From Psammoneis japonica (lineage: Eukaryota), in NCBI GenBank assembly GCA_008632985.1, contig QPGO01000094.1, forward strand, positions 1 through 36,743: a stretch of 36,743 nucleotides of DNA. The letters are read 5' to 3'. Position numbers and translations under genes: made by a program. The notes beneath the pieces were generated by a model. The model ran no database searches. It was given only the letters and a program-made list of their open reading frames with translations, and had not been told where the DNA came from. Of this stretch, positions 2,469-36,743 are shown one piece after another. The number at the start of each line of letters is the position of its first letter. The first letter of the stretch is position 1.

Positions 2469-3014
2469 ATTCGAAAATTTCCTCTTTGTGTGATTTGCTT
2501 TTGTCGTTGACTTCTTCCCAGGGTACTTCTAGTATGACAGGGCCTATGCTGAGTGATGATGATGTGTGGTGATGATTGATGATGAGGCGTGATGTGTGAG
2601 GTGCGCATGAACGGCGGAAAGCGCGCCAAAACGAAAGCCTGCGCGGCACGATTTCGCGCGCGTCGTGTCACAGCAACCGTTGCCCTCATAACCAGTCAAA
2701 AATGTGGGCAGGGGGCGCACAGGGGGCGGGCGCGGAGGGACACTTCATCCCTGTAGAAAGTTTATATAAATTTGTTCAACGTAGATTGGCGATTCTACTC
2801 CTACGTTCATTAGAAAGAGTCATACTATCAATGTCGATAGTAGATAACGTCCAACGCAAGAAATTAACCGTCACAAAATACCACGCTAGAAACAACCAAC
2901 AGCTTTCTTTTTTTGTGACTCCTTCAAGCCAATTTTGGAAGCAACAATACCCCGAAAGAAGCTAAAGTTCGTGTCTACTATTTTGACGCTATACTCGTAT
3001 GCTCCTTAACTAAA

Positions 3015-5550
3015 ATGCTTCGTGAGAACATAGAGGACCAAGCATCCAACGATAACGCATCGTTAGAGCTGTTGAAGCACACTCAGAATTCACAATTACA
3101 AATCGTGCCGATGCGCTTGTTTCGTAGCAGAAGTGATCCGAAAGTAGTTACCCAAGCGAGCGCATTTTCTCGTGTTAGAAGCTTCCCGGTGACGAAATCA
3201 GCAAAATGGAGAAACTCCCATTCAAAGTACAATGGCGATGCGTCAATGAAGGCAAGTGACTCAACCCCGACAATTAAAGAGTCGCTGAGTAAAATCGTCA
3301 CAACTAGGACAGTTATAGAAAATCAACAAACCAATCAGACTCGTGAGCAAGAAAAAATAAAGCTGGATTTGCCATTAGACGGTCGCTCGATGCTTCGTCA
3401 TCAAGATGAAAGTGAAATGGAGAAGCATGTCAGTGAGAAGAAGAACCCTCAGGCTGAAAATAACCCAGACGATGGTGAATTTTTGGCGCAACGCTGGCTT
3501 GTACCAAACACGTGGTTCAACCATTCAACACCGGTGCAGACCGAGTCACGAAATGAGGTTGAAGACTATAGCTTTGAAGTGAGTGGTGTGGTCGGCAGAC
3601 ACTGTTGTTGCGGATGATTCTGACGACAAAAGTTGTGAGGCCGGATCATCTGGGTCAGTTTCTACTTTTGGGCAAGTCTTTGGCGATCTCGTTTCGGTAC
3701 CCTCGATTCCCGACGCAGAAACTGTCGATGACAAGCTCTCCGTTGGGGACTTATCAGTCGTATCCAACGATGGTCTAAAATTCGTGCCTTCTACAGATGA
3801 AGAGTCCATTGATCTTCACACCAATGCCACAAATTGCGATAGCCTCGACCTCGATAAGGACTACTCTGGAGTCAGAGTGAACGAGTTGGTCCGTCCAGCG
3901 AACGCAGTATCGCAAACACTGGAGGAATCAAAAGAAATTCGAAGAAGTGAGCAGGCTGGAAAATACCTTATCCAGCAGATCTGAAAGACTCGAAAGGGAG
4001 CTACGTATTGCAAAGGAAAAGCATGGACTCTATGACGTTCAGTGTGCCCATATTACATCGGTAAGTCCATTCGAAACAAAGCTGTCGGTTTTGTTGCCAT
4101 GTTTCCCCTATGCGAAGTTTGTTATAACTCTCTCTGCATTCTTGCCATCGTAATATAACCGTGTTCAGGCCCTTGGAGATGTATTAGAGGAAGATAATAA
4201 GATAGATCAAGCTCTTACAAAGCACCGAGATGCTCTAATGATCTACAGTGCAAAACTTGGCGACCATCATTTGACCAACTCTTGATGAAAAGACTCGCGT
4301 AGCTGAGCTGTTGGAAGCGTGCGGTAACTACAATGAGGCAATCGCCATGTGCTTTAATATCCTCCAAATGAGACGGGCAATGCTTGGACAGACTCACACT
4401 TCAGTATCCGACACGTTGGTGTTAATTTCGAGGGCTCTCGAGAAGAAAGGGAGACCAACTGGAGCCATCAGCTCATTGAAGCGCGCTCTGAGGTTTACAG
4501 AGCGAGCCTTGGCGACGCTCATCCGCGCGTTGCCACTGCCGTTGATGACATTGCCAAGCTTTACATGAAGACGAAACAATACAAGAAGGCAGGTGCTATT
4601 CTCGAAGAAGTGGTAAAGCTAAGGGCAGCCACAATGGGCATGAGCCATCCCGATGTTGCTCGAAGCCTGTTGGAATTGGCAACGGCGCAAGAAGCATTGG
4701 AGGACTACGTTGGCGCCATGAAGTCTTTGAAAAAGGCCCATAGCATCTACACATCCCGCGTAAAGGGGAGAAATAGAAAGAATCTTCAAGCGCTGGGAGC
4801 GTTAGAAAGAATTGCTCAGGTTTATAGGGCAACCAAGGACACAAACAAGGCAGTCCAAGCGTACGTCAAAGTCGTACGCGGAAGAAAACAGCTGCTGGGA
4901 GAGCACCATCCACTTGTGGCAACGAGCTATCTTCACCTCGGTATTGCCCTTCGAGAGGATGGTGATAATGAAAGAGCTTTAAAGTACTTGAATCACGCTC
5001 TCTCTCTCTTTGCTCCAACCAAGAGAAAAGCGCTGAAAAGCTTGCAATGCAGGCCGAGACGATTCATGAGTTGTCACGACTCCATGCCATGATAGGCAAG
5101 AAATATGAAGCCCGCAGGTTCTTGAAGAAAGAAATAACCCTACGAGAAATGATTGGCACTGATCAGGAGTTATTCAACCTTGGCAAAGCCAAAAATGCTC
5201 TCGGTGTTGTGGAATATGAAATGAAAAACTTCAAAAAGGCGCTGAACTGCTTCATGGAAGCACTTTCAATATTTGAAAGAACTCAAGGTATTGGTGTAGA
5301 CTTTGGTGGAGCCCTCGTCAACACAGGGCTTGCGCTAAAGGCTAGCGGTCACCGAAAACGGGCTAATGAAGCATTTGAAGAAGCTCTCAAGGTTTTTAAG
5401 TCTTTCGATTTAGCAGATGACCACGAATTTGTGGTCAAAGTTTGTAAGGAACTGAAAGACGAAAAGACCTGCAAGGGCGCCAAGGATAGGAGCGCAGGAA
5501 GAATTTATGTTGCCACCAAGCGTGTTTCCAAAAGCCACGTTGTAGCTTAA
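3015..5550 (+). CDS. Kinesin-light-chain-like TPR repeat protein; intron 4061-4168; about five frameshifts
   Basis: Repeated motifs LGQTHTSVSDTL, LGDAHPRVA, MGMSHPDVARSL and LGEHHPLVATSY across consecutive overlapping ORFs. Frame jumps near 3585, 3955, 4280, 4500 and 5020. Confidence 0.75.
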
Positions 5551-6292: not shown

Positions 6293-7525
6293 GATCAAAT
6301 CAAGCTGTCGGCTGTGGGATAAAACAAGAAAGAAATGTTGAGGAGATTGCTTTGACTTGCTTTTATTTACGCAGTTGCCGATACGAATTTAGCATCAGAA
6401 GGATACTATCAATGGGTGCTTGTTGTTTCTGGTGACAACCGTTGGAAACACCGCCATCTCCTCACCTTCAATTTCATTCACTTGTTGGTCAAAGGTGCAA
6501 GCTCGAGCATAGCACGACGAACGACGCGACGATGATGGCGGGCGGAGAGGGTCGCACGTTGCGCTTCGTACTGATCGTACAGTGGAATCGTGCGGAGCAC
6601 GTCGCACGCTACAAAGTAAGCGGTAAGTGAACAGTGACACGGATGACGGACAGGGAATGCTCGTGCCTTCTCTTCTCTGATTTATTCCACATCCGGGTTT
6701 TTCCCTGTAGCACTGTGAACTGCGCAGCGGCCCTCTGCTCTCTAGCTACGCTAGAGTAGAGGAGAACAATTTTGGACAGCCAAACGCGAGGTTCGGGGAA
6801 TGAAAACACATTGAACAATGACTGTCAACAAACGGCTCAGCAACCAGCAATGCAGGCAAAGCAAGTGCAGCCAGCCACCAATGCAAGTGTCACCTTCAAA
6901 CAACACACTCTGGCTCTCTTCCAATGACGGGAATGAGTGGTCAGGACAAGCGCTCTTGGTGCAGATGGGGAAGCACTGCCGTTTGACATTGGCACTTTTT
7001 GTGTTGGAACATGCAGAGCTCTGGAGCAGTCACACCAACCACAAAGTGGCATGTCAACCAAGCCACAAGTCAGCAATGCCACACAGCAACCTGCTGAGCA
7101 ACAAAGATGGTCAAAAAAGGAGCCATCGATGATGCCAGCCTTGCTCTTGGAGCTGTGCATGATCGGTCATCATTTGCGCCAGATGGTGCAGCACAGCACA
7201 CTGCTTGTGCCTGCTCTGAGTTGTTGATTGACGTGCACATTGTCTGCAGCCACTTGGCGAACAGGCGCATCAATCAAAGCAGGCGCCATGTTTCAGACAG
7301 GCTGACATTCAGAAGAAGAACATTGAGCTCATTTTGCAGCAAGGGAAGAGCTGCAGAGTCTTGCTCTTCACACAACAATGCAACACGATTGAGCATGCCA
7401 CCCAAACCAGTGAAGTGCAAAAAAAGATCTAGAGTCTCGAGAACTGCACAAAGCATCAGCAACTGCCACCTGACTTTTCTGCAAGGCTGGAAAAATTTGT
7501 TGAAGAATGTGGCTCAGACCCGTTG

Positions 7526-8272
7526 TGCTTGTGGAAATTGAGGTGTGATTCAGGGTGCAATTTTGGGGTGGTGCAAAAATGTGCATTGCACAAATTTACA
7601 CCCCAAATTTGCACCCGATTTTTGCATGAGTTCAAGAGTGTGAAATTTGACATCTGCAACTTTGTGAGCAACGACACATTCATTGAACACACGCTCCTGA
7701 AAAATTGTTGACATTCAAAGCAGGAACATCCCCATGTCTCTAATTTCAACCAACTTGTCTGTGCATGACTTGAACGCTCCAATGACTGCATCAAAACACC
7801 GCAGCATTTGGTGGCTCCACTGCAACCTTGCACACATCAAATCTTAGAATGATGCTGTTGATGTCACGCATCATTGTTGCATCCATGGCTGAGGTTTCAG
7901 CAACCATGTGACACATTTTTCTTCTAAGAAGGCATGAAGGTGCCATCATTCTGTCATTTGTTGACTTCAATCTTGTCACTTTTTGCCATTCTTTCTTTCA
8001 TGAACACACCACAATGGCTCCCCAGCAACAATTTTTCAACATTTTGTCGACCAAAGTTTGTCGCTGATTGTTGGTTGTCATTGTTGTTCAGTGTTCACAT
8101 GTTTTCTGCCATTGTGGATGATGATGAGTCTGTTGGCTGTGCAAAAAATTTTACAGGCAAAAAATGCATGTCTCTGGTGGCCCATTTGTTGGCTGCATTT
8201 TTTGAGGGGTGCATTCCGCACGTTTTTGCATCCCGAAATTGCACCCCGAATTGCACCCCTCCTCCACGAGCA
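7526..8272. mobile_element. Degenerate non-autonomous TIR element (~750 bp)
   Basis: 7528-7591 (cttgtggaaattgaggtgtgattcagggtgcaattttggggtggtgcaaaaatgtgc) is an imperfect inverted copy of 8209-8270 (reverse complement ctcgtggaggaggggtgcaattcggggtgcaatttcgggatgcaaaaacgtgc). Confidence 0.6.
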
Positions 8273-8794
8273 TGACAGGTCTCAGTGGCATGGTCAGATG
8301 AAGCTTGCAAGACAGACAGATGGAGCTCACTTGCACTGGCTCAGAGATTGTCATTGAAGATGCCTCTGATGTGGCCAGCTCACAGACCCTGGAGCAGTCA
8401 CAAGCCTCTTTGGCTCACAATGTCCACACAAGACCATTGAAATGGCCCTGACTCAAGCAGATCTATGCACTGCAAAGATGGCAGTGGACAAAAATGCGCA
8501 GCTCATTGTCCCAGGCAGCTCTGACTTTGTCACACATGTTGGCCCAAGCAAAAATTGAGTGGAGAACTTGCTGATGTCATCAAATTGCTGTGAGACGTGA
8601 GGAACAGATTTGTTCATTTGGACACAAACAGGCCAAAAACCTGCCACAGATCTTCTTGACAAAATGCTCTGTCTGAAATTGGGGAGGTGCCTGTTTCTTC
8701 AAACAAGCAAAGATGATGCGTTTCTGATTGCAAGTCAAACACACTCATCCACTTGTGAAAGCTGAGCAAAACACTTGGAGTGCAGGAGCTCTCA

Positions 8795-8865
8795 ACAGGA
8801 GTGCTTGAGATGCAGCTCTTGACAGGAGTGCTGGAAATGCAGCACTTGATTGGAGCACTCAAGAT
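8795..8865 (+). repeat. Degenerate 27-bp tandem repeat (~2.5 copies)
   Basis: acaggagtgcttgagatgcagctcttg / acaggagtgctggaaatgcagcacttg / attggagcactcaagat. Confidence 0.6.
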
Positions 8866-9918
8866 TGCCCAACACCAACCAACTTGGGCAGTGTGGAGGA
8901 AGTGGTGGGTGTGGCTGTCAATGGGCATGCTCAAAATGATGCAGCGCCAACTGACAAGGGTGGTGCGGAGGAAGCAGTGGCGGGCGCACACGATGCAACA
9001 TCAGCTGACAAGGTTGGCACAGTGGAGGCAGCAGATGAAATGCCAACACACCCAAAGGCATGCCAACAAAGGAAGAGCTCAAATGTGTGGGGATTGTTGA
9101 GGGCGCAATGTCTTGCCTGTTTGGGAAGGTCAAGTTTGCAAGCTTGGCACTCGAGGATGATGACAGGGTCAAAAAGAATCCAGTTGGCTTCAAGCTCTGA
9201 TGGCATCAATCCATGGAAAGTGTTGCTGTGCAAGATTTTAATCATGCAACTCACCACAAGCATGTTCAGAAGACTGCCAATGAGCTGTTGCTGCTTTGTC
9301 TCAAAAAGAACAGATGGAAACATGGGCAGGTCAAGTCCAAGAGTTCACAACAATGAGCAGCACCAAGTTGTCCCAATGAGAGCCAAAACAATGACAGGTG
9401 CTCTCTGACATGTCCACCACCCCAAACAGCATGACCAATGCTTGACTGACCAAGAAGAAGAAGTGCTGCTGCTGTGTCAAAGGATGTGACAACAACAGCG
9501 CCAGCAGCAAGTTGAGGCAAGCACCTCAAATTCCGCCAAAGCTGTTGAGTGGTGCGACCAGAGCAAACAAAATCTTGCACCGTGTCAGATCTTTCAAGCA
9601 GCAGGAGTGGACCAGCAGCTTGAGTCATGGTCGATCGTGCAACTTAAAAGACATCTGACTGTGTTGCTTGCACTCCAAGGAATCTGTCAGTGGTGGGAAG
9701 CTGTCAGTGGGATGCTGTCAAGTGTTGATGTCCAAAATGGCCAAATGGTTGCTGCATTGTCAGAGCCATTTGACGCTCCTGTGCTGACTGGGAAGATCAA
9801 CTTCCACACACCTCAAAATGTGCAACCAAGTGGTGCTGGCACATTTCAAGAGCTTCTTTGGCATGCTGTCACGTTGGGCTGGGCAAATTCAATGTTGTCT
9901 CCAGCGGCATGATCTGCA

Positions 9919-10945
9919 ATGGCAAGAGAAGCCAGTCAAGCACAAAACATTGAGAGCAGTCTTGTGTTGCCCACACAAAATGCATGGGAAAATGCAGATC
10001 CCAAGTGGAAGAAGCCATGCTTCACACACAAAGATTTGACTCCAGAAGAAGCAAAGCAACGCACCAGTTTCTGGGACTTGAAACATTTGCTGCAGCATGT
10101 GGCTGTTGTGCACAATGGCAACTTGGAAGTCATTGCCAAAACTGCAACAAAACTGACCTGGCTGGAAGAGCTTCTTTTGCATTTTGAATTTGCTTGGGGT
10201 TGCATGAGGACACAGCTGCAAGATTGCAAAAAAGAGAGCATGATGCACATCCACACACATTGAGAAAAACAATTGCTCATTGCCAGAAAAGCACGCCAGA
10301 TTTTTGGGTGAGATGGCCGATGCATGCACCACAACAAAGAGGGCGCAAATTCATGAGACACAAGAGCTGGGGTGCACACTTTTGTCCAACAACTGGCCAC
10401 CGCATTGTCACCCATGATGCGTCAAATGTTCCCATGCCAGATCCAAGCTTGGGTGACCTCAACCAAGCACTGCTCCACAAATGCTGCTGCAACACATGCA
10501 TTGTGCAAGGGTGGGTGTTGCTGCACAGCTGCATTGTTGGTTGTGTGGTTTGCCACTTGTGGCTGGACACAGTGGCGGTGATTGGCAGATTGAAGGTGCA
10601 AAGGCTCTTGAGCTCCAAAAGTTGTTTGCTGAAACTGACCCTTCTTCTTCCAGAGCCTTTCTGAATGCATTCAACAAAGGTTGCCATCAGATGTTGGAGA
10701 CACAAAAGCACAGTCAAATGTGCTGTCAACCGGAGTTGGCAGATGAAAAGTTCAGAGATGCAACAAGGTCACTTGCGCAGGTTGTGTGGCTGTCATCCGT
10801 TCTGGTGACAAGAGGTGTGCAAAATGCACCAAAACCTGTGTCCTGGTTCATTGAAAGAGGGCGCACCAACCAACTTTGGGGCATTGATTCTTCACTCTGC
10901 AATGCATGGGAGGCATTTGCATTTTTTTGCAAACTTCATGTTTGA
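9919..10945 (+). pseudogene. DDE transposase remnant, PIF/Harbinger-ISL2EU (DDE_Tnp_4)-like
   Basis: Frameshifted frames give HRIVTHDASNVPMP, GHSGGD, FLNAFNKGCH (recalled consensus DKGY) and AVIRSGDKR, in the order expected for this family. Confidence 0.55.
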
Positions 10946-11112
10946 CGTGTTTCAATGAATGTTGCTGCTGCAGTGCACAGAGAAAATGCAGAGCTGTGCA
11001 GTTGTGAGCAGCATTGAAACACGGGGTGCCAGCAGCTCATGTTGGCATTTAAAGCATCTTCATTGCATGGCAAAGCATGGTCATGGACTCTGCAACAAAT
11101 TTGCACCAGAAA

Positions 11113-11479
11113 TGCACCATGCTCGAAGAACGAGTGTAAACGAAAGTAGAGTGGTGTACGAAAAGTGGAAATTGTGAGATTGAATTTTGCTCTGTGATTT
11201 TTGGTTTCTCCGAACGAGTTCTCAATGGCCTAAAGCTTCTGTACTGCTTCTACAGACGAAAGGCCTTTCGGAGAATATATTCGTGACAACAGATTGTCCG
11301 GATGCGATTGCCATTGACACGTAAGATGTCAACATCGTCAATCGATCGTATTTGCAATTCTCGACATCCGATCAACTCTGTGTGATCGTTCTGTCCTTTG
11401 TACGCATCCACGACTGTGGTACGATTGACATATAAATAATATATAATCATATATATGTATATAACAGTCGCATACTGCA
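11113..11479 (-). repeat. 3' LTR of the Gypsy element
   Basis: Colinear without indels with 15471-15837; about 32 substitutions by hand count. Confidence 0.93.
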
Positions 11480-11490
11480 TTCGCCTCCCT
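11480..11490 (-). other. Polypurine tract (PPT)
   Basis: Minus strand AGGGAGGCGAA immediately precedes the 3' LTR. Confidence 0.75.
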
Positions 11491-13970
11491 AATTGCACAT
11501 TAGAGTCATTTGTAAGTGGATTATTCGACGGACATCGACAGTGTCAATAATGTCTCCACTTTCACTGTATTGTGCCATTAGCAATGACTGTTGTTGTTTT
11601 GTATAGGCAATATAGGGCCGTTCCAATTTCCGAATGTCTTTTGAGAGTGACATTGTTTGTTTCTCACTTAATATGTATATATATAGTATTACGTCGAGTA
11701 TTCTCATTGACGTTCTTGTTGATATGAACACAAGGACTAATTGTCCTGGAGTAGTGTTTTTCCTGATATCGATTGTACATAGCATCGTGCCCAGTACTTA
11801 ATGTACGCTCTTAATTATGGCGTTCACTTACTTACTTGTGGATTTCATGTAGTTTGGCGGGCTTACTTTATATGCCATATTGCTCTGCTGCACTACCACG
11901 TTTCATAAGTAATAATAAACGATGGTCAAGATATTATGACCATTTCGTCTTGATAATCAATCCTGTGATGGTTATGAATTCCATTATGGATTTTTTTTTG
12001 TACTTCAACCATCTATCAGTTGGATTTTAATCGTTATTTGGACGTTTCTTTCTGACATACCGGTGTTATTTTGTCATTCCGAAGGCACTGGTTTCGTGCA
12101 CTAAGTGGATAAATGTCCATTTTTCTTTTCTTTTTCTAGATCTTTGGCACATCTCGTGTGTCGACATGATGTATATTTTAATGTCTTGCCTCGTACATTG
12201 TACAATACAACCGTACGGGTGTTGTGAGATTGTCTTTTGCCAGTGTGAAGTGGATACGTATAATGTATACCAATCTGTCACTGTTTTTTCCTAAATCGTC
12301 CTTTAAAAAGGCGATTTTATCCTTGTGACATGAGCATTTTTCGATCTCGCTCGCCTCCACGAAAAGTGTTCGTATGATATGTCGCGTCCGACAATTTGGA
12401 GGGAATGTCTTCTTCCCGTTTTTTAACGGTAGGACATTGTCGTAGGATTCAATTTTCTATAGTAAGTCGGCTGATCGCGTCTATCGCGACGATGTTCGCC
12501 TTGCCCTCGTTGTATTCTAATTCGGGACTGAAGTTGTCAACGTATGACTTTGTCCGTTGTGTCTTATGATCCGTATATGTATAAATCTGTTGGCCAAACA
12601 GTATATTTCGGAATTTTATAAGTGTTTTCACTATGGACAGAAGTTCTTTTTCCGTTGTAACGTATAATATTGAAATCCGTGTATGATAACAATATAGTTT
12701 TTGATTTGATGCGCTCCACATTTTCGGAGACTTTTCGTTCCGTACTTGTACTTTTGCCGTTTGACCTTTATTGAGATGAATTTGGCTAGTATTGTACAGG
12801 AGATCGTTGAGACTACATGTCTCGATAACAGCAACGTATGACAACGAGATGTCGTAGTGTTCTTTACGTTTTTCTCGTGTTGCGATTGCTTGAATCGCCT
12901 CCATTTTCTTTGCAATCGATTGCATGTCGTTACGCATGGAAGTCTTGATAGTTTATTTCAAGTTAAATAGTGAAGGACTTTTGTTGTTAACCTTCTAAGC
13001 GACTGTTCTAGTCGTTTGAATGCCGCATTAAGCTGTCACTTGCACAGGTGATGTTTTGAAGTTACTTTTGTCAGGCACAAACGATCACATGCAGTCGTTC
13101 TGACAACTTCAAACCTGTTGTGAGTTCACTCAAGTGTTGTATAAAAATATCTGGGGCTCTGTAGATTCTCATTGGAAGTCCACAGTGCTCATTTTCTCCC
13201 CACGGCATGATTTTCGTGTGAGCACGACGTGTGCTTTTTTTGTTTGACATGGTGGCATTCCATGTTTGAATCAAACAGATCACATGCATGAAACGTTCTT
13301 GCTTCAATGGCATTTCCTGAACATTGGGTGAAGGATGCACCACCTGTGTGAACCTTGTGCCAAGCTTCTGAGTGTCGGGTGCAGTCGAACTCGACCTGTT
13401 TTCTTTGGACAATGAGTCTCAGAGCGACTCATTCAGAGCAACTTCATTCTTGAGACTTCAATCTTTCACAATGGGTCAAACTCCTTTTGATTGGACGCCT
13501 CCAAAGACTGTGACAGGAGAAGGTTCTCACGCGTCGTGGAATCGCGTCAGATTTTCCACGATGAGATCCGCTGATGCTTCCCATGCATTCGTCTGAGGAA
13601 CTTTTCAAAACGATTTCAACCTCTCAAGAAGAAGATTGAGTTGGTTGTGTTCATTTGGGTCAGATGCATCGCCGCAGTTGTCACTTGATTAAGATCAATG
13701 GCGTGACAATGTGAGTCGAGGACCATTGGCTCCGTTGTTGACTCTGTTCACGGCGTCACATTTTTCAATGTGATCGGTTTTCAGCTTGAAAACATCGGCA
13801 TCGAAGAGTGTGTGAACATTCTTCGTAAGGCAATTGCTTCTTCCCATTAGATTTCTGCATTTGCGCAGTCCAGTGTGACTTGCAGGGCTGGACATTAAGT
13901 CGCGTCCCATGATCACATCATTTGAACCTGAAGAAAATTTGGTGTTTTCAACACATGCTGTTTGCATGTC
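11491..13970 (-). pseudogene. Gypsy pol remnants (protease, RT, RNase H, integrase)
   Basis: DVIMGRDLM (protease, ~13900); FDSNMECHH and MPWGENEHCGLPM...APDIF (RT, ~13140-13280); YVTTEKELLSIVKTL...YTDHK and ANIVAIDAISRL (RNase H, 12450-12670); DWY...QH...CQR, TPGQLV and DTVDVRRI (integrase). Confidence 0.85.
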
Positions 13971-15470
13971 AGCATGCCTTAAATTTCACACAGCGAGAAC
14001 TGAATTCGGTGTTTGCTGTCAGTCGTAAAGAGCTCACCCTTGGTTTCCCAAGTTTTTGGTGGCGGATTCTTGTGTTCTCAACTTTCGCACGAATTTGCGC
14101 AAAATTGTGGTTGACGATGTTCCGTTGTCGACAGGAACACGCAGGTGCTTTTTTTTTTCTCCTTTCCCAAGGAAGCATTCACACAAATGATGACTCCTGG
14201 ACTGGCATGAATTATTTCTGCCTTTTTTCTGGGCTTCCCAATGTCCAGCAAAGCACACAATTCGTGAACAGACCAAAATTGTTCTTTGGATTCAGCCTGG
14301 ATCATCCGATCAAATTGGTGTTTTTCTTCACTGAGGGCATCAGAATCTGATTCTTTGCCCTTGTGCTCTTTTTCTTTGTTCAAGGAACTCGCTTTGAGCA
14401 TTTTTTGAACCGCCTGATCAATCATGACGTTCATCTCTTTTTTTGCGAGTGGCATTTTCGTCATCGCGACGCGACCGCGTGCGATTGCCATTTGAACGGC
14501 GCATTTTTGGGTCTCTTTCAGAGTCACCCTTGCACTCTTTTGCCAGTTCATTTTTAGAATGGCTTCAATCCGTGATGTGGGCATTCTTTTTTCAAAGATG
14601 AGACCTTGCATTCACTTTGGATTGTTCTGGCACCATGTGGGAGACCATTTTTGGAACCAAATTTGGAACCTTTTTTATTTTGGAACCAACTGCGCTGTCA
14701 GAGCCTGAGTTGACATGTTTTTTCGTCACGGACGTCATGAACGACCTTTAGATGACTCAAAACTTAATCAGCTCATCAAGGATGAGTTGCAATGGTTGAT
14801 TGTTTTGGACAGTAGACTGATGCTGCCATCCTTGCGGTGCGAGTGACAGCTGACAAATCAGCGCTTGGTTTCCCGCTAGATTCGACTTAGAATCCATCTG
14901 AGGGTCGCACAGACTCTCATCGTTGACCTCTTGGGTCTGACAGAGGCTTTCCCGCTGTCAAGCAGCTCTGGTTTTCTTCAGGTCATCTCGAAAATAATTT
15001 CCCTGATTCTGAAGTGCATTTCCTCGGAGGACATGAGTTGTGAGACGCTTGAGGTGCTTTCCAACGATTCCCTCTTGCTCCTTGGACTCGAGGATCATCG
15101 ATTCGGTCTCAAAAAACTCTCCAACAGTCTCTCCTTGCATGCCAGACGCATTTCTTGGACCTGATCGACTCGGAACTTGCATTCTCTGCAACCATGACTT
15201 GGTGTAGATTTTTTGACAATGCGGTGTGCTTGAGAGCCCTTGATCCTTGGGTGCTTGGAACAGACCGCACTGGAGCGAATCCTCTTGTCTGGTGGACGAA
15301 AAACAACGTTCCATCTTGAGGCACTGCTCGGCTTGAGCTTCTTCCGCTTTGGAAATCGATTCCAGCAGAACTGATGCGATTCATTCCTGTTCACAGAAGA
15401 ATTTGCAAAGGCACATCAGTTAAAATTTTCATTTTCCGTGCTTTTTACCTTCTGTGGTGTGTGTGCACAA

Positions 15471-15837
15471 TGCACTGTGCTCGAAGAACGAGTGCAAACG
15501 AAAGTAGAACAGTGTGCGAAAAGTGGAAATTATGAGATTAAATTTTGCTCTGTGATTTTTGGTTTCTCCGAACGAGTTCTCAATGGCCCAAAGCTTCTGT
15601 GCTGCTTCTACAGACGAAAGGCCTTTCGGAGAACACATTCGTGACAACAGATTGTCCGGATGCGATTGCCATTGACACGCAAGATGTCAACATCGTCAAT
15701 CGATCGTATTTGCAATTCTCGACATCCGATCAACTCTGTGTGATCGTTCTGTCCTTTGCACGCATCCATGACTGTGGTGCGATTGACGTGCAAATGACGT
15801 GCAATCACACATGTGTGCACAACAGTCGCATGCTGCA
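15471..15837 (-). repeat. 5' LTR of the Gypsy element
   Basis: Direct repeat of 11113-11479 with TG...CA ends. Confidence 0.93.
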
Positions 15838-15841
15838 GAAA

Positions 15842-18220
15842 ATTCAACGCCCCAAAAATGAACCATGAACACCTTCCATTGTGAGCTTGATCTGCTGCAC
15901 AAGAAGGTTGTTTCTTTCAAGATGCACATCTTTGGCTTTTTTCTCTCTCCCTGCTCTGTCTGTTTGTGTGCTGGCTCATCTCTTCTGTGCAATGCTCTGT
16001 TGTGTGTGTGTGCTCTCCTTTTGCCAGAAAAAAGATGTGGCTGTGGGATGTGTGCTGCCACTTGCTTTGAATCATGTCTGCAAGTGCGTGCCATTCTTTC
16101 GCTGAAGTGCAGCATCCTGTTGGGCAAATTCAAATTGTTGTTGACACAAGTGCCCATCAACATGATCATGGCAGAGTCTGTTTTTCTCTGCGCTCTTGAT
16201 CACAGCATTGTGTGTGCCAAAGAAATGAAAACAAACAACAAGTGTCTGTGCCAAAGAAATGAAAACAAACAACAAATCTTCTTTGGCTCTCTTGATCTCA
16301 GTGTGCAAAGCTCTTGTTGGTTGAATTGCCGCTCAAAGTGTTGTCATCAATTGACAAGAGCTGGCACTCTTCAACATGGGTGTTTTTTCCTCTTGTGTGT
16401 CATGGCAAGCTCACCCCAAAGGGGTGGCTCAAGCAAAAGCTGCACTCAGCAACCACAGTGTTTTCTGCTAAAATCAACAGAGCTGCAGCCAAATCTGATG
16501 CTGGGTGATCTGGCACAAATGTCAATTGTGTGGTGGTGCCTGAGGCCAATGACTGATGCCTCAAAAAACACATTTTGGGTCTCTTTGCATGTGTGCAAAA
16601 TGTGTTTTTGACAACAACAATTGCTCTCTTTTGTTGCAAACCTCCTCACAATGCATCATTGACAAATCTGCCACACCCACTCTCCCAGTTTCCGGTTTCC
16701 AGTGTTGCCCCATTTAAAATTGAGGCATTGCCCCAGACAAAAAATCAGCACTGCACAAGCACCAGATCACCCCCAGCTGCTTTGTTGCCTGTTTCCTGTC
16801 ACTGTTGTTGTGCGCCATTGTCATCATTGCTTGCAAAGTGAGTCACTTCGCCAGCTGCTTTGTGGCACCACACAAGAAGTTTTGCGCATCATCTGCAAGC
16901 TCTGCAAAATGACGTGGTCTTTCTGGGGCCTGCTGGAAATTTTGGTCACATGCATTGAAAAGGTCAACATGAGCAGCAAGCCACAAGAGCAGGACCTGGG
17001 TGCATTGTTGTGCTGTTTCTGAACTCTGAACATTTTTCTTTGGTTGTGCATTTTCCTCATGGCACCATTTTTGGAGATGCTTCCACACATTTCTGTGCAC
17101 AGCCAGCTGTTTTTGAATTAGACAGCCAACCAAGCAGCTGGCAACCACCCAAACAACCACAAAGTTTTCACTGCCACAAGCCTGGAATGCCTGGCACATG
17201 ACACTGGTGCTCCTCAACTCTGAAGCACAACCCCCTGGGTTGGCCAGCGCTCCTCAGCTCTGAAGCACCACCTCCTGGGTTGGCTGGCTGAGCTGGTCAA
17301 AGTCAAGAGATTAGAGCACAAAAGCAAAGCTGCCTCAAGGAGCAAGTGCACATGTGCTGGTCATCTGAGCACACTTGCTTGCACCATGAAAAAGCAAAAA
17401 GGCTGCTGAGTTTGGGAAAAGTGCACAGTTTCTCAGCAGTGTTGAGGTCACTCAGAGTCTCTCTTCATTTCAGACCTCCTGGCTGTGCTGCTTGCCTGCA
17501 TTTGCAGCAGCAGCAATGCCAAAAGACCCTCTGTCTCAGCTGCCAGCATTGGCTGCAGCCCATTAATCAGACCATGATGTGCTGCCTCCAGAGCCAGTGA
17601 AAGACTGTCTCTTTGGCACATCTGCCCCCCTGGCAAGACATTGGCGTGCGCTGCGCTTTGAGCGCAGCTGATTGTGAAAATTTGAGCCGAGAGAGAGAGA
17701 AGAGCAGTGTGCCTCATTTCTTTGAGGGGCTGTCTGATTTGTCCTCTCTTCTGCTGCAGGCTTTAATTTTCAACATGCACGGCAACAAATGGCGGCACTG
17801 CACCCCTGCCAGGGCATGCAGCAACAGCGTGGCGCGACAGCCCCACATGGGAGAGAAAAGCCTCCACAGGGTTTGCAGTCACCAGCTCAACAATCAACTT
17901 GCAGAAGAATGGGTTTTCTTTCACAACAACTGCCCTTGTTTTTTTTTTCTGACAAGAGACAAAAGAGGTCACCTGCCGCCACAAAAGTCCCTTGTTTTGG
18001 CAAAAAAGCTGCTGCAGTGCCCAGAAGCCGGTGCTGGAGAGAGCCCCTCCTCCATTTGACAACAACATCATGTGTGCAGTGCAGTGATGCAGGACAACCT
18101 TGACAATCATGAACGAGACCAGTTTTCTCATCAATGGGGAGAAACACTGGGCAGTTTCAATGCGATTGCCCGCCACTTTGACGTGAGCAACTTTCGACGA
18201 CTGGGGGTGTGACGAAAAAA
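15842..18220. other. TpA- and CpG-depleted degenerate repeat domain (right part of island), family unassigned
   Basis: About six TA in ~2.4 kb; ORFs are Tyr-free; the pattern ends abruptly at ctttaaaattataatac (18221-18237). Confidence 0.85.
17205..17284 (+). repeat. 40-bp tandem duplication
   Basis: gctcctcaactctgaagcacaaccccctgggttggc / gctcctcagctctgaagcaccacctcctgggttggc. Confidence 0.85.
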
Positions 18221-18262
18221 CTTTAAAATTATAATACATTTTTCATTTCGTTTGTACAGTAG

Positions 18263-18568: not shown

Positions 18569-18698
18569 GTACCGCTTTTCCTCCACATTTCTGCGTCATT
18601 CAATCTATGATGGCGATCTTTCTGCATTGATTGTAGTACTGCTTTTCCTCCACATTTCTCCGTCATTCAGTCCATGATGGCGATCTTCTGCATGGATT
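18569..18698 (+). repeat. ~65-bp tandem duplication
   Basis: gcttttcctccacatttct(g/c)cgtcattca(a/g)tc(t/c)atgatggcgatctt occurs at ~18574 and ~18641. Confidence 0.85.
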
Positions 18699-19941: not shown

Positions 19942-20604
19942 TCATGTGATCACAATGTGCCATGTTCAATGTGCTCGAGGATCGCGAGGAGGAGGAGTCG
20001 CGCGCGAATACTCTCTTAGCTAGCTCTCTAGCCCCTACTCGCTCTACTCTAGTAGTAGTAGCTAGTAGAGCTAGCTCTCTAGCTAGAGTTTTTCGAGCTA
20101 GAGTTCCTCTAGCTAGAGTAGAGGTATGAAAAATAACTCTCCCACAGTCAACGCTCTGCACAAGAAAAGCACCATGCGATGTGCAGTACCATCTTCACAA
20201 CTTGTTACCGGGTGCGACTATTACTGTGTAATACGAGTACCGGGCGGTAGGAAAGGGATGTTCCACTTCAATTGACGTAGGCTACGTAGAAACCTAGATT
20301 TTACCAAACTAGACACAGGCCCAGAAGCCCGCTCATCGTGGCATGAACAAGCGTACTGTAACGGAGAAGACGCGACCAAACTCGACAACATCGATCGAAA
20401 GGAGCGAAAAATTGCGTAACGAACCAAAGGCATTGACGTTGTGTTTCCTTCCATGTGGGAAGGATCAGATTGCAGCGTTCACGTCTGGTACACCTCCAAC
20501 GGCCGTGTAACAATGGTAATTGATTGGACGCTGCTTTCACGGCTGTTACTGCTTGACAAAATTTGATCGAGTATCACCTCGTGGCTTTTCATAACTCATC
20601 CCAA

Positions 20605-27347: not shown

Positions 27348-27979
27348 CAAGGCTGTAGAAAGACCCGAGAAACAGGCACTCCTTGGAGAATATCTGGTTC
27401 AATGCACCGTGGAACTGGCACCTGAAATCAATCATCAGAATAATACTTACGGATTCAGCCAAAATTCAATGCGAAAGTTGTTGGATTAATGCCCCCCAAG
27501 AGGGAAGACGGAGCCTCCGACAATTCTAGCTCTGATAATAGGGAGATAGAACTACTCTAGAGACTGCCTCTAGTAGAGCGCCCTTTTCACTTCAAACTAT
27601 TCTACTACTCTAGAGACTAGGGCTAGCTAGAAAAACCATGAGTTGAAACCACGGATACCGCTATGGCGTACGGTAGAGCTACGGTACCGGTACGGTCGGG
27701 TCGGTGGGTGTACACTTCTGGGGTGTAGGCGGCCCATCGCAATGTCTGTGTGTCCAAATAATGAGTTTTCTGGGTGTGAAGCCCAGATTGAAATTTCTGC
27801 TCTCACTGCGCAAGTGGCAGTTTGTGTGCCGTGGCTTGTGGCTTGCGGCCATGGACGAGGACCGGCGTTGGCTGCCCACAGCCACGCAGCAGCGCCGGCC
27901 CCGAGATTTCGTCAGGGCATGTACCATGTACCTTCACTTCTAGAGTGGTGCAGTTACCTTGACTCAAACTACGCCTACG

Positions 27980-30060
27980 ATGGCCTCTCATGAGCACTTG
28001 CAACAACTGAATGATGAAGATTCAACAAGCTCCGAGAGCGGTTCATCTACATCATCGAGCGATGACGATGACATGTCTGAATCCTCGGACGTACCTCAGG
28101 ACATTGGCAATGTCGACTCCGGTGTTGTGACTGTCGCAGATCCTGACCGTAGCGCAGAATTAGAAAGACCCAAACCTAAGCTCAAGCTCTCACTGCGGAT
28201 GCCAAAGAAGACGACTTCAGAAGAAGGAGATGATGAAGAGAAGGACATGGAAATCGATACCGCTGCAGCTTCTTCTGTTGCAGATTCAACTGATGCTGAT
28301 GAAGACATCGTGGATGAGACTGAGGTTGTGAAAGCCACCGTTGTTCCCAGCGACGATGGAGACGCCATTGAAGAAGTTGTTGAAGCAACTGTCGCAGAGG
28401 AGGTACCTACCGCCACCGCCGTGCCTTCTGCCACACAGTCTCAACCGCGACCCAAGCCATCCGCCCCCAAGAGTCGCCGCTCTCCAACGACTGTTCTTCA
28501 TGCGGGGCGCCCGGTTCGGCTGCCTTCAATGTCATCTCCTGGCTTACTCATAACACCGACTGCGGGTGTGTATCGTGGCGATGCTGATGCTGACGGTTTT
28601 ACAACCCCTGCATCAGTCTTTACCCGTGCCATGTCTTTGGCAGGGTACAGCACAGAAGGGAGAACCAAGCATCCACACAGAGGATCTAGTGTCGAAAGAG
28701 TCGTCGATGATATGTTCGACAGCAATATTCGCTTCACTTTGCATTTCCCACGCCTCGTCCCTGAGGATTTGTGGAGTCACAACGCAATGGCTTCGCCAAA
28801 TCAGGCATCGTCAGAGGAACTAGCATCGCACGACAAAACTTCATCTCTTCCACAAATCTTAGTCCGTGCTCTTGCAAAGCCTGAGGAAGAAAGGATGAAC
28901 GTAGCTAGTGAAGACGTAGGTGCAAACGGACGCAAAAAGCGAAGGACGTGTTTGTCTTTCGTTGACATGGCCCCTGTTTCTCTTACGATTCCATACCCAG
29001 AATCGTATATCCAGAAACGCCTTGACTACACCAAGAAGGTCGAAGCTCGGGAGCGTGCTATCGTTGCCTCTCAAGAATCAGCGCAGGCAGTGGAAGAAGC
29101 AAAGGAAACAAGCGCTACTACAAACACACCCAGCGAAAACGGCCTCCATGCAGCACCAAAGAATCCGCAGCAGATGGAAATACCACCAATACCAACACCA
29201 CCCAGTCCTCCTTCCGAGATTGATGATGACTATTTCAAAAGTACTGACAAGGAGCGACATCCTATTCGTATCATCAAGGGGAAGGAGAAGTTTGTTTCAC
29301 ACCTTGACAAAGATTGCTTCCACATTACAGATGGACGGTACTATGGGCTCTCGACCAATTCTATTGCCGACCCCCATTTTGTTGGGCCGAATGCTCCTGG
29401 TATTGTAGGCTTAAATATATCAGGGGGGACTGGCTTAGCAACTTCTGCCAGCAATGCGGTAACCGCGACTTCTTCGCAAGGATACTTTGGGAGAAATCCG
29501 GGTGGCGGAAGCAGCGGTGCCGTTGTTGGATCGAAGAACCCGGCCGAAACGAACAAAGCGTCTTCCAAAGAGGCTGCGTCGTCGGGAGCTCCAGGCAGTT
29601 CTACCAAGACTTCAAAAGGTTCAAAGAGCAATGAAGCAGCGACGTCCACGTCAACGGACTTGAAGAAATTCATGGAGCAGGGAGACACGACTCTGGTTGA
29701 AGCAATGAAGGTTTGCATCACTCGTGCCGCCGTTCACGCAAGTCGAACGGGTATGCATGGAGGATCGTTTGTCGGTTCGGACGGGGAAACGTATCCTGAC
29801 ATCAGCAAGGCGTTTGCAGCACATGCAGGTTTGAGGCCGTGCAATAGATGCAAGAACAATAAGCAGGGTGTAAGTTTCATGATGTCATCGCATTCGAGTT
29901 ATGCTTGTTTGTCTAATACTTTCCTTTCTCTATTCAATAATAGGCATATCACTGTCGTCTACGTAGAAAGCATAAGGATGTTGACTACGATGGTGGAAAT
30001 AGTTGGGCAGTGCTTGCCCCGTTGTTCGAAGAGAAGATTGGTGATTTGGTACACAGGTGA
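27980..30060 (+). CDS. Hypothetical protein with acidic disordered N-terminus and C-terminal Cys/His motif; intron 29870-29943
   Basis: Long ORF; splicing gives PCNRCKNNKQG/AYHCRLRRKH...DGGNSW, ending at TGA 30058-30060. Confidence 0.75.
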
Positions 30061-30781
30061 TGAATGCAATTCGCTGGGTGCAATTGGGGACTTTACTGAA
30101 CGTTAAGCAAAGTTAAAATTGAATCGTTAAACTATGTCCGGTATCTCTAGTTGGATGGTGAGCTAGCTAGTTGAATTTCCTTATTTAGTTACTCTGTTTG
30201 GAAACTGGCTACAACTACCCGGTAGTTCTTTGAAGGAAGACGAGACGCATGCCTCCTATCCCTCTCTAGTAGAATTAAATTGTTTCCGCTTATTCTCATA
30301 GATCGTGGTGACTAAGACGAAGCAAATCATTCTGACACTACCAAGAGAGGCCTCCTCTCTAGCTAGCTACTAGCTAATGAGTAATTAGAGCTAAGAGTAC
30401 GCTACTCTAGAGGGACAACTCTGGATGGTAGCTACTCTCTAGCTACTCTAGCTACTAGCTAGTAGAGAGTAGCTACTAGAGTGGAGATAGAGCTACCGAA
30501 CAGAAGCAAGAGGAATAGTGTTTTGGTTGCGGCGCGACGAATGGTTGGCAACGCCCTCCTGGTGACAGCGGCGCGCGCGACAATCATTTCGAGCGTGAGC
30601 GAGAACGTGGAACGGCAGGTGTTGCGGTTGCTATGGGCTTTTGGGCCGGAGATGCTTTGATGTCGGTGCTTGCTGTCGGCAAACGTTTGATTTAACTTCC
30701 CTCTCTACCATACTCGCTCTAGAGCAAGTAAGCTTGTCACGAAAGACGCACCAGGGAAAACCAGGTCGGTATAAGCAATTG

Positions 30782-35020: not shown

Positions 35021-36018
35021 CTTATTATCTTCCACACGTAAACTGATAATGGTCTTCTAAAGACTGGTCCTGACTATTGACTTTCAGCTCCGGCAGAGCA
35101 ATCTACGTCAACCTGAAGCATGCAGTGCTGACAGCGAAGTTAGGTTGAGTCTTCACAACATTATTCCAGCCCAGCTTGCCAGTGCCGTATTAGTTTTTTC
35201 CCGTCCCGTTCCCTTTTCGTGTTTCTCACGACTTTTTCGAATTTTCCAAAGTACACTTTTCCTGATATTACAGAATACAATGGCTATCCAGCAGTTCCTC
35301 ACATCCAGCCACGGTTACATAATGAGTAGGAGTTGTACAGTAGAATTCGTTGAAACATACTGTACGACGTCAGCAAGAACATGTGTCTGGCATGCATCCT
35401 ACATAATGTGTACAGTACATACTACCGTAGGGCTATTGCACCCAATCGACGGACGCCTTCCGTTTTGTTTCGCGGTTCTCGCTATAGCGAGCGGCGTAGC
35501 ATCAGTCACTTTCATGGAGTGCACCGCTGGTCGTTGTCGACAACCTCCGTGTCTTGTGTTATACACCACTGTGGAGGAACCGGATGCAACGTCGTCTCAT
35601 GAAAAGGACACGTCTCTTGCAAAGGAAATCGAAGGCACCGTTGCCGCAACACTGGCGTCTCTTGCACCGCCGCGTAACGCAACGATCACAACTGCGACAG
35701 CGGAGGTGGCGCCGACTTCAACCATGACGAACCAACCGTCGTCGTTGGTGGAAGGAGACGTGCCGGCATCGCAGACTGCAGCAAAACCGCCTGCAAAGGA
35801 GCCAATCGCCCTCCCCCCATTGATCCCTTGCAAGGCATCCGAAATCCATGGAGGACTGGATTTGGTCACCATGCACAATTGCGAATCGGTGAACTCAAGC
35901 GGCACCATGCATTTTAAGGATCCAAACTGCGACATGAGTTCGATCCACACAACCGAAGCAAAAGCAGATGCAAACAACCTGGATCCTGGAAACAACGAAA
36001 CAACTGAGATGGCAGCAA

Positions 36019-36311
36019 NNNNNNNNNNNNNNNNNNNNNNNNNNNNNNNNNNNNNNNNNNNNNNNNNNNNNNNNNNNNNNNNNNNNNNNNNNNNNNNNNN
36101 NNNNNNNNNNNNNNNNNNNNNNNNNNNNNNNNNNNNNNNNNNNNNNNNNNNNNNNNNNNNNNNNNNNNNNNNNNNNNNNNNNNNNNNNNNNNNNNNNNNN
36201 NNNNNNNNNNNNNNNNNNNNNNNNNNNNNNNNNNNNNNNNNNNNNNNNNNNNNNNNNNNNNNNNNNNNNNNNNNNNNNNNNNNNNNNNNNNNNNNNNNNN
36301 NNNNNNNNNNN
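36019..36311. other. Assembly gap (N run)
   Basis: Run of n characters. Confidence 0.99.
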
Positions 36312-36743
36312 TTCGACGAAAATTGGCGGCTTCGCCTTCAGATGCGCGTTAAATTGAAGGTGCCTTGGAGGGATCACATCGAAATCGGTCGTTCTCAAAG
36401 GAAGGGCGCAGGACTCGGTGTCTTCGCATTGTCTTTCTTCCAGAAACAAGAGGTCATTGGCGTGTGCATTGGCACGGAAGTGTCTAGAAACCCAACTCCC
36501 TTCACTCACTGCTCTCATGACGAGCAGCACGGAATCGACCACAGCGACTGTCTCCTGACACTGCGCGAGCCCAGCGGTCACCATGTGACGGCAGCTCCCC
36601 AACCCTTGGAACTGGAAGAGGGTGAGAACACCAAGCCTCTACACCTGGGTGTGCATTGTGTGAACGATGCGGAGGACACCTTTGAAGACCCCACCAAAAT
36701 GACGAAGTTGGAAGTCAATGCCAGCAACTGTCATTTCAACAAC
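36312..36743 (+). pseudogene. SET-domain-like coding fragment, TpA-stripped, runs off the window end
   Basis: Open frame from 36312: IEIGRSQRKGAGLGVFALSFFQKQEVIGVCIG...PLHLGVHCVND...NCHFN, matching SET motifs GxGLFA / IGxYxG / xxxxN with Tyr positions replaced. Confidence 0.6.

Follow-up and report, generated by a model that had tools for sequence, protein, structure and literature searches.

Patch-wise loss of TpA from mobile DNA, and a flanking-base rule for its targets, at a locus of an apparently diatom-like genome

What has erased nearly every TpA dinucleotide from one part of a eukaryotic contig, and do the bases on either side of a TpA decide whether it survives? These questions are posed by a stretch of 36,743 nucleotides (nt) from Psammoneis japonica (contig QPGO01000094.1, assembly GCA_008632985.1), analysed at its full length and referred to as the window, in which dinucleotide usage shifts abruptly between positions 6758 and 18223. 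This interval holds an outer stripped region in two domains (A and C), interrupted by a nested Ty3/gypsy-like retrotransposon with long terminal repeats (LTRs) and a reverse transcriptase (RT) gene, one half of which has lost most of its TpA. A preliminary description of the window had claimed that the remaining TpA betray a context preference, those followed by a pyrimidine (TAY; Y, pyrimidine; R, purine) being the most sensitive and YTAR the most resistant, and had read this as A-to-G change at 5'-TAY on either strand. Survival in the window, the LTR pair of the nested element and a related family of elements in metagenome contigs all support that claim, as a quantitative preference of ~3-5-fold and not, as the description had itself cautioned, an absolute one. 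The features concerned are as follows.

6758..11110, no strand: outer stripped domain A; 10 TpA in 4353 nt, CpG observed/expected ratio (o/e) 0.1-0.3, CA/TG o/e ~1.9
11109..11112, no strand: candidate 4-bp target-site duplication GAAA, left copy; a matching GAAA follows the right LTR at 15838-15841
11111..15837, minus strand: nested Ty3/gypsy-like element with direct LTRs, RT, RNase H and integrase zinc-finger region
11111..11479, minus strand: left LTR (the element's 3' LTR), almost unstripped, with 25 TpA
11480..13170, minus strand: unstripped half (C-terminal RT, RNase H, integrase zinc-finger region), TA o/e 0.65-0.99
13171..15837, minus strand: partly stripped half (N-terminal RT, presumed gag/protease, 5' LTR), 23 TpA, CpG not depleted
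15469..15837, minus strand: right LTR (the element's 5' LTR), stripped, 22 of the 25 left-LTR TpA reading CA, TG or CG
15838..18223, no strand: outer stripped domain C, continuing domain A past the nested insertion; 6 TpA in 2386 nt, all YTAR

In 500-nt bins, the flanks average a TA o/e of ~0.5 and a CG o/e of ~1.0. The corresponding ranges are 0.00-0.10 and 0.11-0.31 in bins 7001-11000, where CA/TG o/e rises to 1.87-2.01, and 0.03-0.07 and 0.03-0.33 in bins 16001-18000, with CA/TG o/e at ~1.9 there too. With a GC content of 0.45-0.51 (~0.47 across the window), the stripped DNA shows no enrichment in AT, and pyrimidine-purine (Y-R) steps are as dense per base within it as in the flanks (0.248 vs 0.238), an argument for its having once had an ordinary base mix. 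Domains A and C are probably the two parts of one older 6.7-kb element, representing dead mobile or foreign DNA. Their open reading frames (ORFs) returned no Pfam match above threshold (33 ORFs of at least 100 aa and 96 of 45-99 aa), matches to NS1_C and Ribosomal_L31 being weak and under cut-off, and had no match in PHROGs (26 ORFs) or the Atlas (one ORF). Self-comparison in purine/pyrimidine coding revealed no terminal repeats of the outer element, and a coded match between 3625-3812 and the LTR was dismissed as fortuitous once the two were aligned.

The nested element displays each of the features that define Ty3/gypsy retrotransposons, namely direct LTRs, a target-site duplication, and the order RT, RNase H, integrase. 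Its LTRs form a direct repeat of 369 nt with 91.3% identity, or 100% in purine/pyrimidine coding, and a Pfam RT_RNaseH match lies within 12452-12952 on the minus strand. Together with tblastn matches (P0003, P0005 and P0006) at 12110-12664 and 12669-13412, this places RT at 13412-12669, followed on the minus strand by RNase H and the integrase zinc region at 12664-12110. In the TA-bearing half, GC is 0.38-0.40 and the RT frame is interrupted several times by stop codons; with its reading frame broken in this way, the copy is dead. TA o/e is normal or high in bins 11001-13000 (0.65-0.99) and falls to 0.06-0.22 in bins 13001-16000, where CG o/e is nonetheless 0.57-1.0. The border between spared and stripped sequence is sharp and falls inside the RT gene, at no element boundary, with a last TpA at 13162, and the next, after 528 nt without any, at 13690. 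It could have arisen from one patch event, or equally from an intact copy that donated sequence by gene conversion.

Surviving TpA and their flanking bases

Sixteen TpA remain in the 6.7 kb of domains A and C, comprising 13 YTAR, 3 YTAY, and no RTAR or RTAY sites. The nine that the preliminary description had listed are all real, with positions accurate to within 1 nt; its list was incomplete, lacking seven more at 7597, 7741, 7925, 8152, 8464, 16715 and 17764, which leave the picture unchanged. As had been stated from the shorter list, every survivor follows a pyrimidine on the plus strand (16/16) and most precede a purine (13/16). However, because TpA reads the same on both strands, sites have to be grouped as YTAR, mixed (YTAY or RTAR) and RTAY, and the uniform preceding pyrimidine is partly an accident of strand, because the three mixed sites read RTAR on the other strand. 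The excess of YTAR is substantial by either available yardstick: this class makes up 18.6% of the 1034 TpA in the flanks, giving P = 1e-7 for at least 13 of 16, and P = 4e-9 when the unstripped half of the nested element serves as background.

To account for composition, survival was normalised by Y-R steps in each context class, taking flank proportions as the ancestral mix; transitions leave the purine/pyrimidine skeleton intact, so that these steps constitute a mutation-proof denominator. In A and C, survival is 0.24 for YTAR (13 of ~54 expected), 0.02 for mixed sites (3 of ~144) and 0 for RTAY (0 of ~101), and in 13171-15837 it is 0.47, 0.22 and 0.03, respectively (11, 11 and 1 survivors). 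Uniform survival across NTAN contexts, the outcome that the preliminary description had set against its own proposal, is thus not seen, and the virtual absence of RTAY that it had remarked upon holds in both regions. By trinucleotide, survival relative to the flanks is 0.18 for TAA, 0.06 for TAG, and 0.01 for both TAC and TAT in A and C; in 13171-15837 the values are 0.52, 0.18, 0.11 and 0.09. The products carry the same imprint in A and C, where Y_Y contexts hold 136 CA and 244 TG, and R_R contexts hold 261 CA and 142 TG (Fisher 4e-16), whereas the flanks have a bias of the same sign that is only mild. A model with one rate per adenine, fixed by the 3' base and fitted to the survivor class counts, gives a ratio of TAY to TAR rates of ~4.4 in A and C and ~3.1 in 13171-15837, and predicts ~0.2 and ~3.5 RTAY survivors, respectively, where 0 and 1 are observed.

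The LTR pair and a metagenome family

The two LTRs provide a natural experiment. They differ at 32 of 369 positions, all by transitions, and reading from the TA-bearing to the stripped copy, 26 differences are A-to-G or T-to-C and six are the reverse, some of which fit TpA conversion in the 'spared' LTR (for example CA vs TG at 11118-11119). Among the 25 TpA of the spared LTR, 22 are converted in the other, 12 to CA, 9 to TG and one to CG; the near-equality of CA and TG products indicates that both strands are hit. A TA may even end as CG, ATAT in one LTR standing opposite ACGT in the other (window 11440). A plain CpG transition accounts for only one of the 32 differences, such that TpA has mutated far faster than the background since insertion: the process acts after integration. 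The LTRs also reproduce the context rule. Conversion affected 15 of 16 RTAY sites, 6 of 7 RTAR (five to RCAR and one to RTGR, in line with the preliminary remark that RTAR mostly becomes RCA), 1 of 1 YTAR and 0 of 1 YTAY. Counted over both strands, A-to-G change struck 23 of 50 adenines after T, 3 of 53 after C (all three in CAY), 0 of 58 after A and 0 of 57 after G; by 3' base, 21 of 40 TAY were changed and 2 of 10 TAR, with TAG alone at 1 of 3.

The direction of change is seen first in the protein sequence. Four RT tyrosines that are conserved in homologues (in the motifs KPYP, SYAT, YEY and YIDD) read histidine (CAT/CAC) in the stripped part, at 13340-13090, while the unstripped RNase H part, 55% identical to the same homologues, has kept its conserved tyrosine. 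Metagenome contigs, scanned with an alignment of the RNase H region, yielded 77 loci with which to assess direction more broadly. Clear stripping among these was confined to a related family, Ga01631xx (L064, L076 and L063), and was partial in L055, L067, L020 and L075; L005 is TA-poor in one window but was not convincing. In L064, positions 2900-5493 have a TA o/e of ~0 and a CA/TG o/e of 1.5-1.8, and the eight TpA that survive there are six YTAR, two RTAR and no RTAY; positions 2001-3750 of L076 and parts of L063 are partly stripped. The outer domains of the window, compared with the 77 loci in purine/pyrimidine coding, scored no better than a reversed-query control.

L053 served as the alignment reference for fourteen copies of this family (77-91% pairwise blastn identity), and the direction of each change was read from the majority base. 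A-to-G rates are 0.179 at TAC, 0.176 at TAT, 0.077 at TAA and 0.060 at TAG, with the other 12 contexts at 0.014-0.062; grouped by 5' base, TA stands at 0.118 vs 0.028-0.039 for the remainder, AA (0.036) being at background. The reverse change, G-to-A at TGN, is likewise at background (0.031-0.058), and set against a rate of 0.18 for A-to-G at TAY, this demonstrates that TA has been lost rather than made, excluding a polarity like that of repeat-induced point mutation (RIP). When both neighbours are considered, the rate is 0.199 for a purine at -2 with a pyrimidine at +1, 0.159 for pyrimidines at both, 0.069 for purines at both, and 0.061 for a pyrimidine at -2 with a purine at +1. The 3' base is consequently the main determinant, at ~4-5-fold net of a background of 0.033, and the -2 base contributes only ~1.25-fold. 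At the level of sites, adenines mutated in at least one copy number 110 of 137 in TAY and 58 of 161 in TAR (P = 5e-15), and 211 of 1175 where T does not precede. Where TA is present in at least 60% of copies, conversion amounts to 28 of 88 at RTAY, 34 of 197 at YTAY (23 TG, 11 CA), 37 of 198 at RTAR (28 CA, 9 TG), and 20 of 215 at YTAR.

Two observations concern other contigs in this collection. L046, a 12.4-kb contig that also carries a gypsy copy and a host Exo70 gene, has a Copia-type RT fragment (RVT_2, E = 1.5e-5, under the curated cut-off) at 127-1149, within a TpA-poor end (TA o/e 0.30-0.42, CA/TG 1.4-1.5); other element classes may be hit too in this organism. In the gypsy-bearing L017, L029, L031 and L043, CpG o/e is 0.07-0.18 and TpA is normal, that is, CpG has decayed without TpA stripping.

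Loss of CpG is a separate matter in the window also. CpG is depleted in the outer domains and not in 13171-15837, and because the latter has lost TpA and kept CpG, the TpA process is independent of CpG decay. CpG survival in the outer domains relative to the flanks is lowest at TCG (0.16), followed by ACG and CCG (both 0.22) and GCG (0.41), and in the 14-copy family C-to-T change at CpG is likewise highest at TCG (0.170 vs 0.074-0.112). TCG is the cytosine motif reported for amphioxus ADAT2 (PMC10354150), and a cytosine side activity of the agent that acts at TpA may be the source of this bias. The commonest class of surviving CpG in the outer domains is RCGY (40/92), and some of these may be double-converted RTAY sites, for which a second hit at CpA would be needed.

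Candidate mechanisms and their rivals

Taken together, these data show patch-wise hypermutation of TpA to CpA or TpG at the level of integrated DNA, and we consider it probable that an enzyme is responsible, with a TadA-like adenine deaminase acting on silenced foreign DNA as the most likely agent. A:T pairs are changed to G:C at TpA, on both strands, in sharp-edged patches over dead mobile DNA. The outer 6.7-kb element would have been driven near to completion, with loss of CpG as well, and the gypsy-like element would have inserted later and been hit only in 13171-15837. A 5' T is nearly obligatory, with C a weak second, and a 3' pyrimidine raises the rate ~3-5-fold over a 3' purine. RTAY, presenting two good targets, vanishes first; YTAY and RTAR are converted on their TAY strand, to YTGY or RCAR; and YTAR, above all TTAA, lasts longest. 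The chemistry may be conversion of adenine to hypoxanthine in DNA, for which a deaminase with a TadA-like taste for T-A-Y is the most likely candidate, and the whole would belong with the TpA hypermutation of Bigelowiella natans as one type of system.

In mutation-accumulation lines of that alga, 230 of 231 mutations in two integrated viruses were A-to-G or T-to-C, all at TpA, at ~1000-fold over background and in some lines only, and its genome harbours 124 clusters that are low in TpA and high in CpA/TpG, with an excess of RT and DDE domains; an ADAT2-like deaminase was proposed (Mettrop et al., bioRxiv 2026; 10.64898/2026.01.13.699255). The resemblance extends to every feature by which that process can be recognised in the data at hand: transitions that are nearly all A-to-G or T-to-C, a 5' T, and discrete regions of foreign or mobile DNA, including RT-bearing clusters, that are poor in TpA and have gained CpA and TpG. 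Unlike B. natans, a chlorarachniophyte in which viruses were hit, the present host appears diatom-like, and a retrotransposon and a near-completely stripped outer element are the targets. The TAY-over-TAR rule and the loss of CpG from the outer element are also described here and not in the main text of the preprint, which contains none of the words 'context', 'flanking', 'trinucleotide' or 'CpG', although its Fig. 2B and Table S2, which lie outside that text, may hold flanking data.

A resemblance to TadA and ADAT enzymes, and the editors derived from TadA, lies in deamination of adenine that is read as G and in a pyrimidine after the target. A review tabulates 5'ACG for TadA/ADAT2 and 5'UAG for ADAR (PMC10661471). 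Of the features of a TadA/ADAT signature, the 5' T requirement is present and the 3' pyrimidine is favoured, but T equals C at +1 (0.176 vs 0.179 in the family), where the TadA target has C. U33 precedes the adenine that TadA targets, and the early adenine base editors of Gaudelli and colleagues in 2017 reportedly preferred YAC. Fungal RIP is likewise a dinucleotide-specific, defence-like process that ruins mobile DNA by transitions after integration. It makes TpA from CpA, however, and hits both copies of a repeat, whereas here TpA is removed, GC stands at 0.45-0.51 and one LTR was spared, which argues against repeat sensing of the RIP kind.

Several points weigh against this proposal. That an enzyme is at work, that it attacks A and not T, and how it is targeted are all inferences from the pattern of mutation, and A-to-G at T-A-Y is inseparable in sequence from T-to-C at R-T-A. 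Amphioxus ADAT2, the only ADAT2 tested on DNA, prefers GAA for adenine (PMC10354150). The proposal gives no reason for the escape of the nested element's other half and other LTR, which might reflect gene conversion from an intact copy. Within the LTR pair, one YTAR was converted and one RTAY retained, so that the rule can be quantitative only, and 13171-15837 lacks the product asymmetry of the outer domains (51/63 vs 48/52, n.s.) despite its survival bias, possibly because the element's coding-strand bias swamps some 20-40 events. Ancestral TpA counts in A and C assume a composition like that of the flanks or the nested element, because no copy of the outer element turned up that had escaped mutation. 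Finally, the copy-state counts in the metagenome family are phylogenetically non-independent, a concern that the site-level test answers in part.

The main rival retains the pattern and shifts the attack to thymine, with oxidation of the TET/JBP type, or some other modification of T in R-T-A, yielding 5-hydroxymethyl- or 5-formyl-uracil that mispairs with G. Owing to the self-complementarity of TpA, T-to-C at R-T-A predicts the LTR and family tables exactly. In dinoflagellates, TpA and TpC are the preferred sites of 5-hydroxymethyluracil, and A:T to G:C transitions are promoted by 5-formyluracil. The second-tier hits at C-A-Y (3/53 in the LTRs; CAC is the top non-TA context in the family) would, however, require T-to-C at R-T-G, and are simply explained by a deaminase with a relaxed 5' pocket; we accordingly hold the thymine route to be unlikely, if still worthy of consideration. 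Far less credible is error-prone repair synthesis by DNA polymerase eta (Pol eta) in silent chromatin. Its A-to-G errors fall at WA (W, A or T), TA included, but the comparison with this signature that was suggested in the preliminary description fails, because adenines in AA are unaffected (0/58 in the LTR pair, and background in the metagenome family).

We attach an equally slight likelihood to an ADAR-like activity that edited the RNA of the retrotransposon, or double-stranded RNA, before reverse transcription made the changes permanent. A-to-G change with a preference for a 5' U is typical of ADARs (PMC10661471), and their hyper-editing of double-stranded RNA from repeats produces clusters of it, but ADARs act on RNA, favour a 3' G and tolerate a 5' A, whereas here the 3' preference is for Y, AA is untouched, and TAG is affected less than TAY (survival in A and C of 0.06, vs 0.01 for TAY; 1/3 vs 21/40 converted in the LTRs). 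LTRs copied from one RNA are moreover identical at integration, and these differ at 32 positions; the strands are hit about equally (12 CA vs 9 TG); stripping stops partway along the element, at ~13165; and the outer domain is without detectable retroelement genes. An ADAR-like origin is already contradicted for the window locus. Reversed polarity, in which the elements were natively free of TA, and RIP-like C-to-T change at CpA/TpG made the TA of 11111-13170, is more improbable still. The LTR pair alone gives no direction, and the low GC and RT-frame stops of the TA-bearing half would suit such a history. Nevertheless, DNA in which Y-R steps have their normal density would hardly have a TA o/e of 0.03 as its native state, RIP mutates both repeat copies where here one LTR escaped, and both the retention of tyrosine in the TA-bearing RNase H, as opposed to histidine in the stripped RT, and the family rates (0.03-0.06 for G-to-A at TGN, vs 0.18 for A-to-G at TAY) point the other way. 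An artefact of assembly or base calling in heavily modified DNA can be discounted to the same degree: the signature and context rule recur in independently assembled metagenome contigs from other projects, the RT frame is altered coherently from tyrosine to histidine, and Illumina mutation-accumulation data confirm the process in another alga (10.64898/2026.01.13.699255). Among public sequencing runs, a single one contains the window (70% of sampled words), possibly as its source data, and no RNA run is listed as containing it.

Host, neighbourhood and significance

The remainder of the window is eukaryotic and dense in genes, with long, uninterrupted flanking ORFs that encode a mitochondrial carrier, TPR proteins, a dihydrouridine synthase (Dus), CENP-O, and a ThiF/rhodanese enzyme of the MOCS3 type. 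The nearest Atlas clusters to the Dus protein are from diatoms and oomycetes. Among 120 listed matches to the MOCS3-type enzyme (best identity 57-64%), eight rows name an organism, namely Nitzschia (two rows), Entomoneis, Mayamaea, Cylindrotheca, Pseudo-nitzschia, Amphora and 'Stauro...', all eight of which we take to be diatoms. The genome of B. natans is intron-rich, from which the long intron-free ORFs of the window differ. In the metagenome family, an Exo70 gene adjoins the elements, and its sole organism-named relative among 14 matches is from Pseudo-nitzschia multistriata, at 61%. On the evidence of these genes, the hosts of the window and of the metagenome family both look diatom-like.

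Immediately outside the stripped region, at 18569-18698, is a tandem pair with a unit of ~64 nt, 90.6% identical. Bins 20001-20500, 27501-28000 and 30001-30500 have the opposite bias (TA o/e 1.13-1.22, CA/TG 0.74-1.05), and are presumably AT-rich intergenic DNA. One further feature lies at the end of the window, where TA o/e is ~0.1 in 35601-36000 and a gap of 293 N occupies 36019-36311.

35563..36743, no strand: possible further TpA-poor stretch; 5 TpA, CpG not depleted; continues through the N gap and past the last position of the window

When the literature was searched for this phenomenon, in diatoms or elsewhere, the B. natans preprint was the only report to emerge, and there is no mention of it in the text available from Maumus et al. 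2009 (PMC2806351). The type of process is thus already known; judging from sequence, what would be new are a diatom-like host, transposons as targets, and the flanking-base rule. Hardly any natural enzyme is known to mutate adenine in DNA, and the sole direct evidence for a process that erases TpA is that 2026 preprint on one alga, in the main text of which the enzyme is unnamed and a flanking preference absent. From the window locus and the metagenome contigs, it would appear that diatom-like algae, a group of great importance for ocean production, have the process as well, with transposons among its targets. Its sharp-edged patches, and the sparing of one LTR of a pair, suggest that it is not triggered by repeats as RIP is. 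The target rule, under which a T before the A is required and a C or T after it is favoured 3-5-fold, excludes Pol eta and ADAR-like signatures, provides a yes-or-no test for candidate deaminases, and may be of interest to builders of base editors.

More speculatively, diatoms (stramenopiles) and Bigelowiella (a rhizarian) may share an old defence, in which a DNA adenine deaminase with T-A-Y specificity is loaded patch-wise onto silent transposon and viral DNA. We regard this as an appealing but doubtful extension of the present data. If true, such a defence would constitute the mirror image of fungal RIP, and the TAY-over-TAR fingerprint would supply a ready assay for its enzyme.

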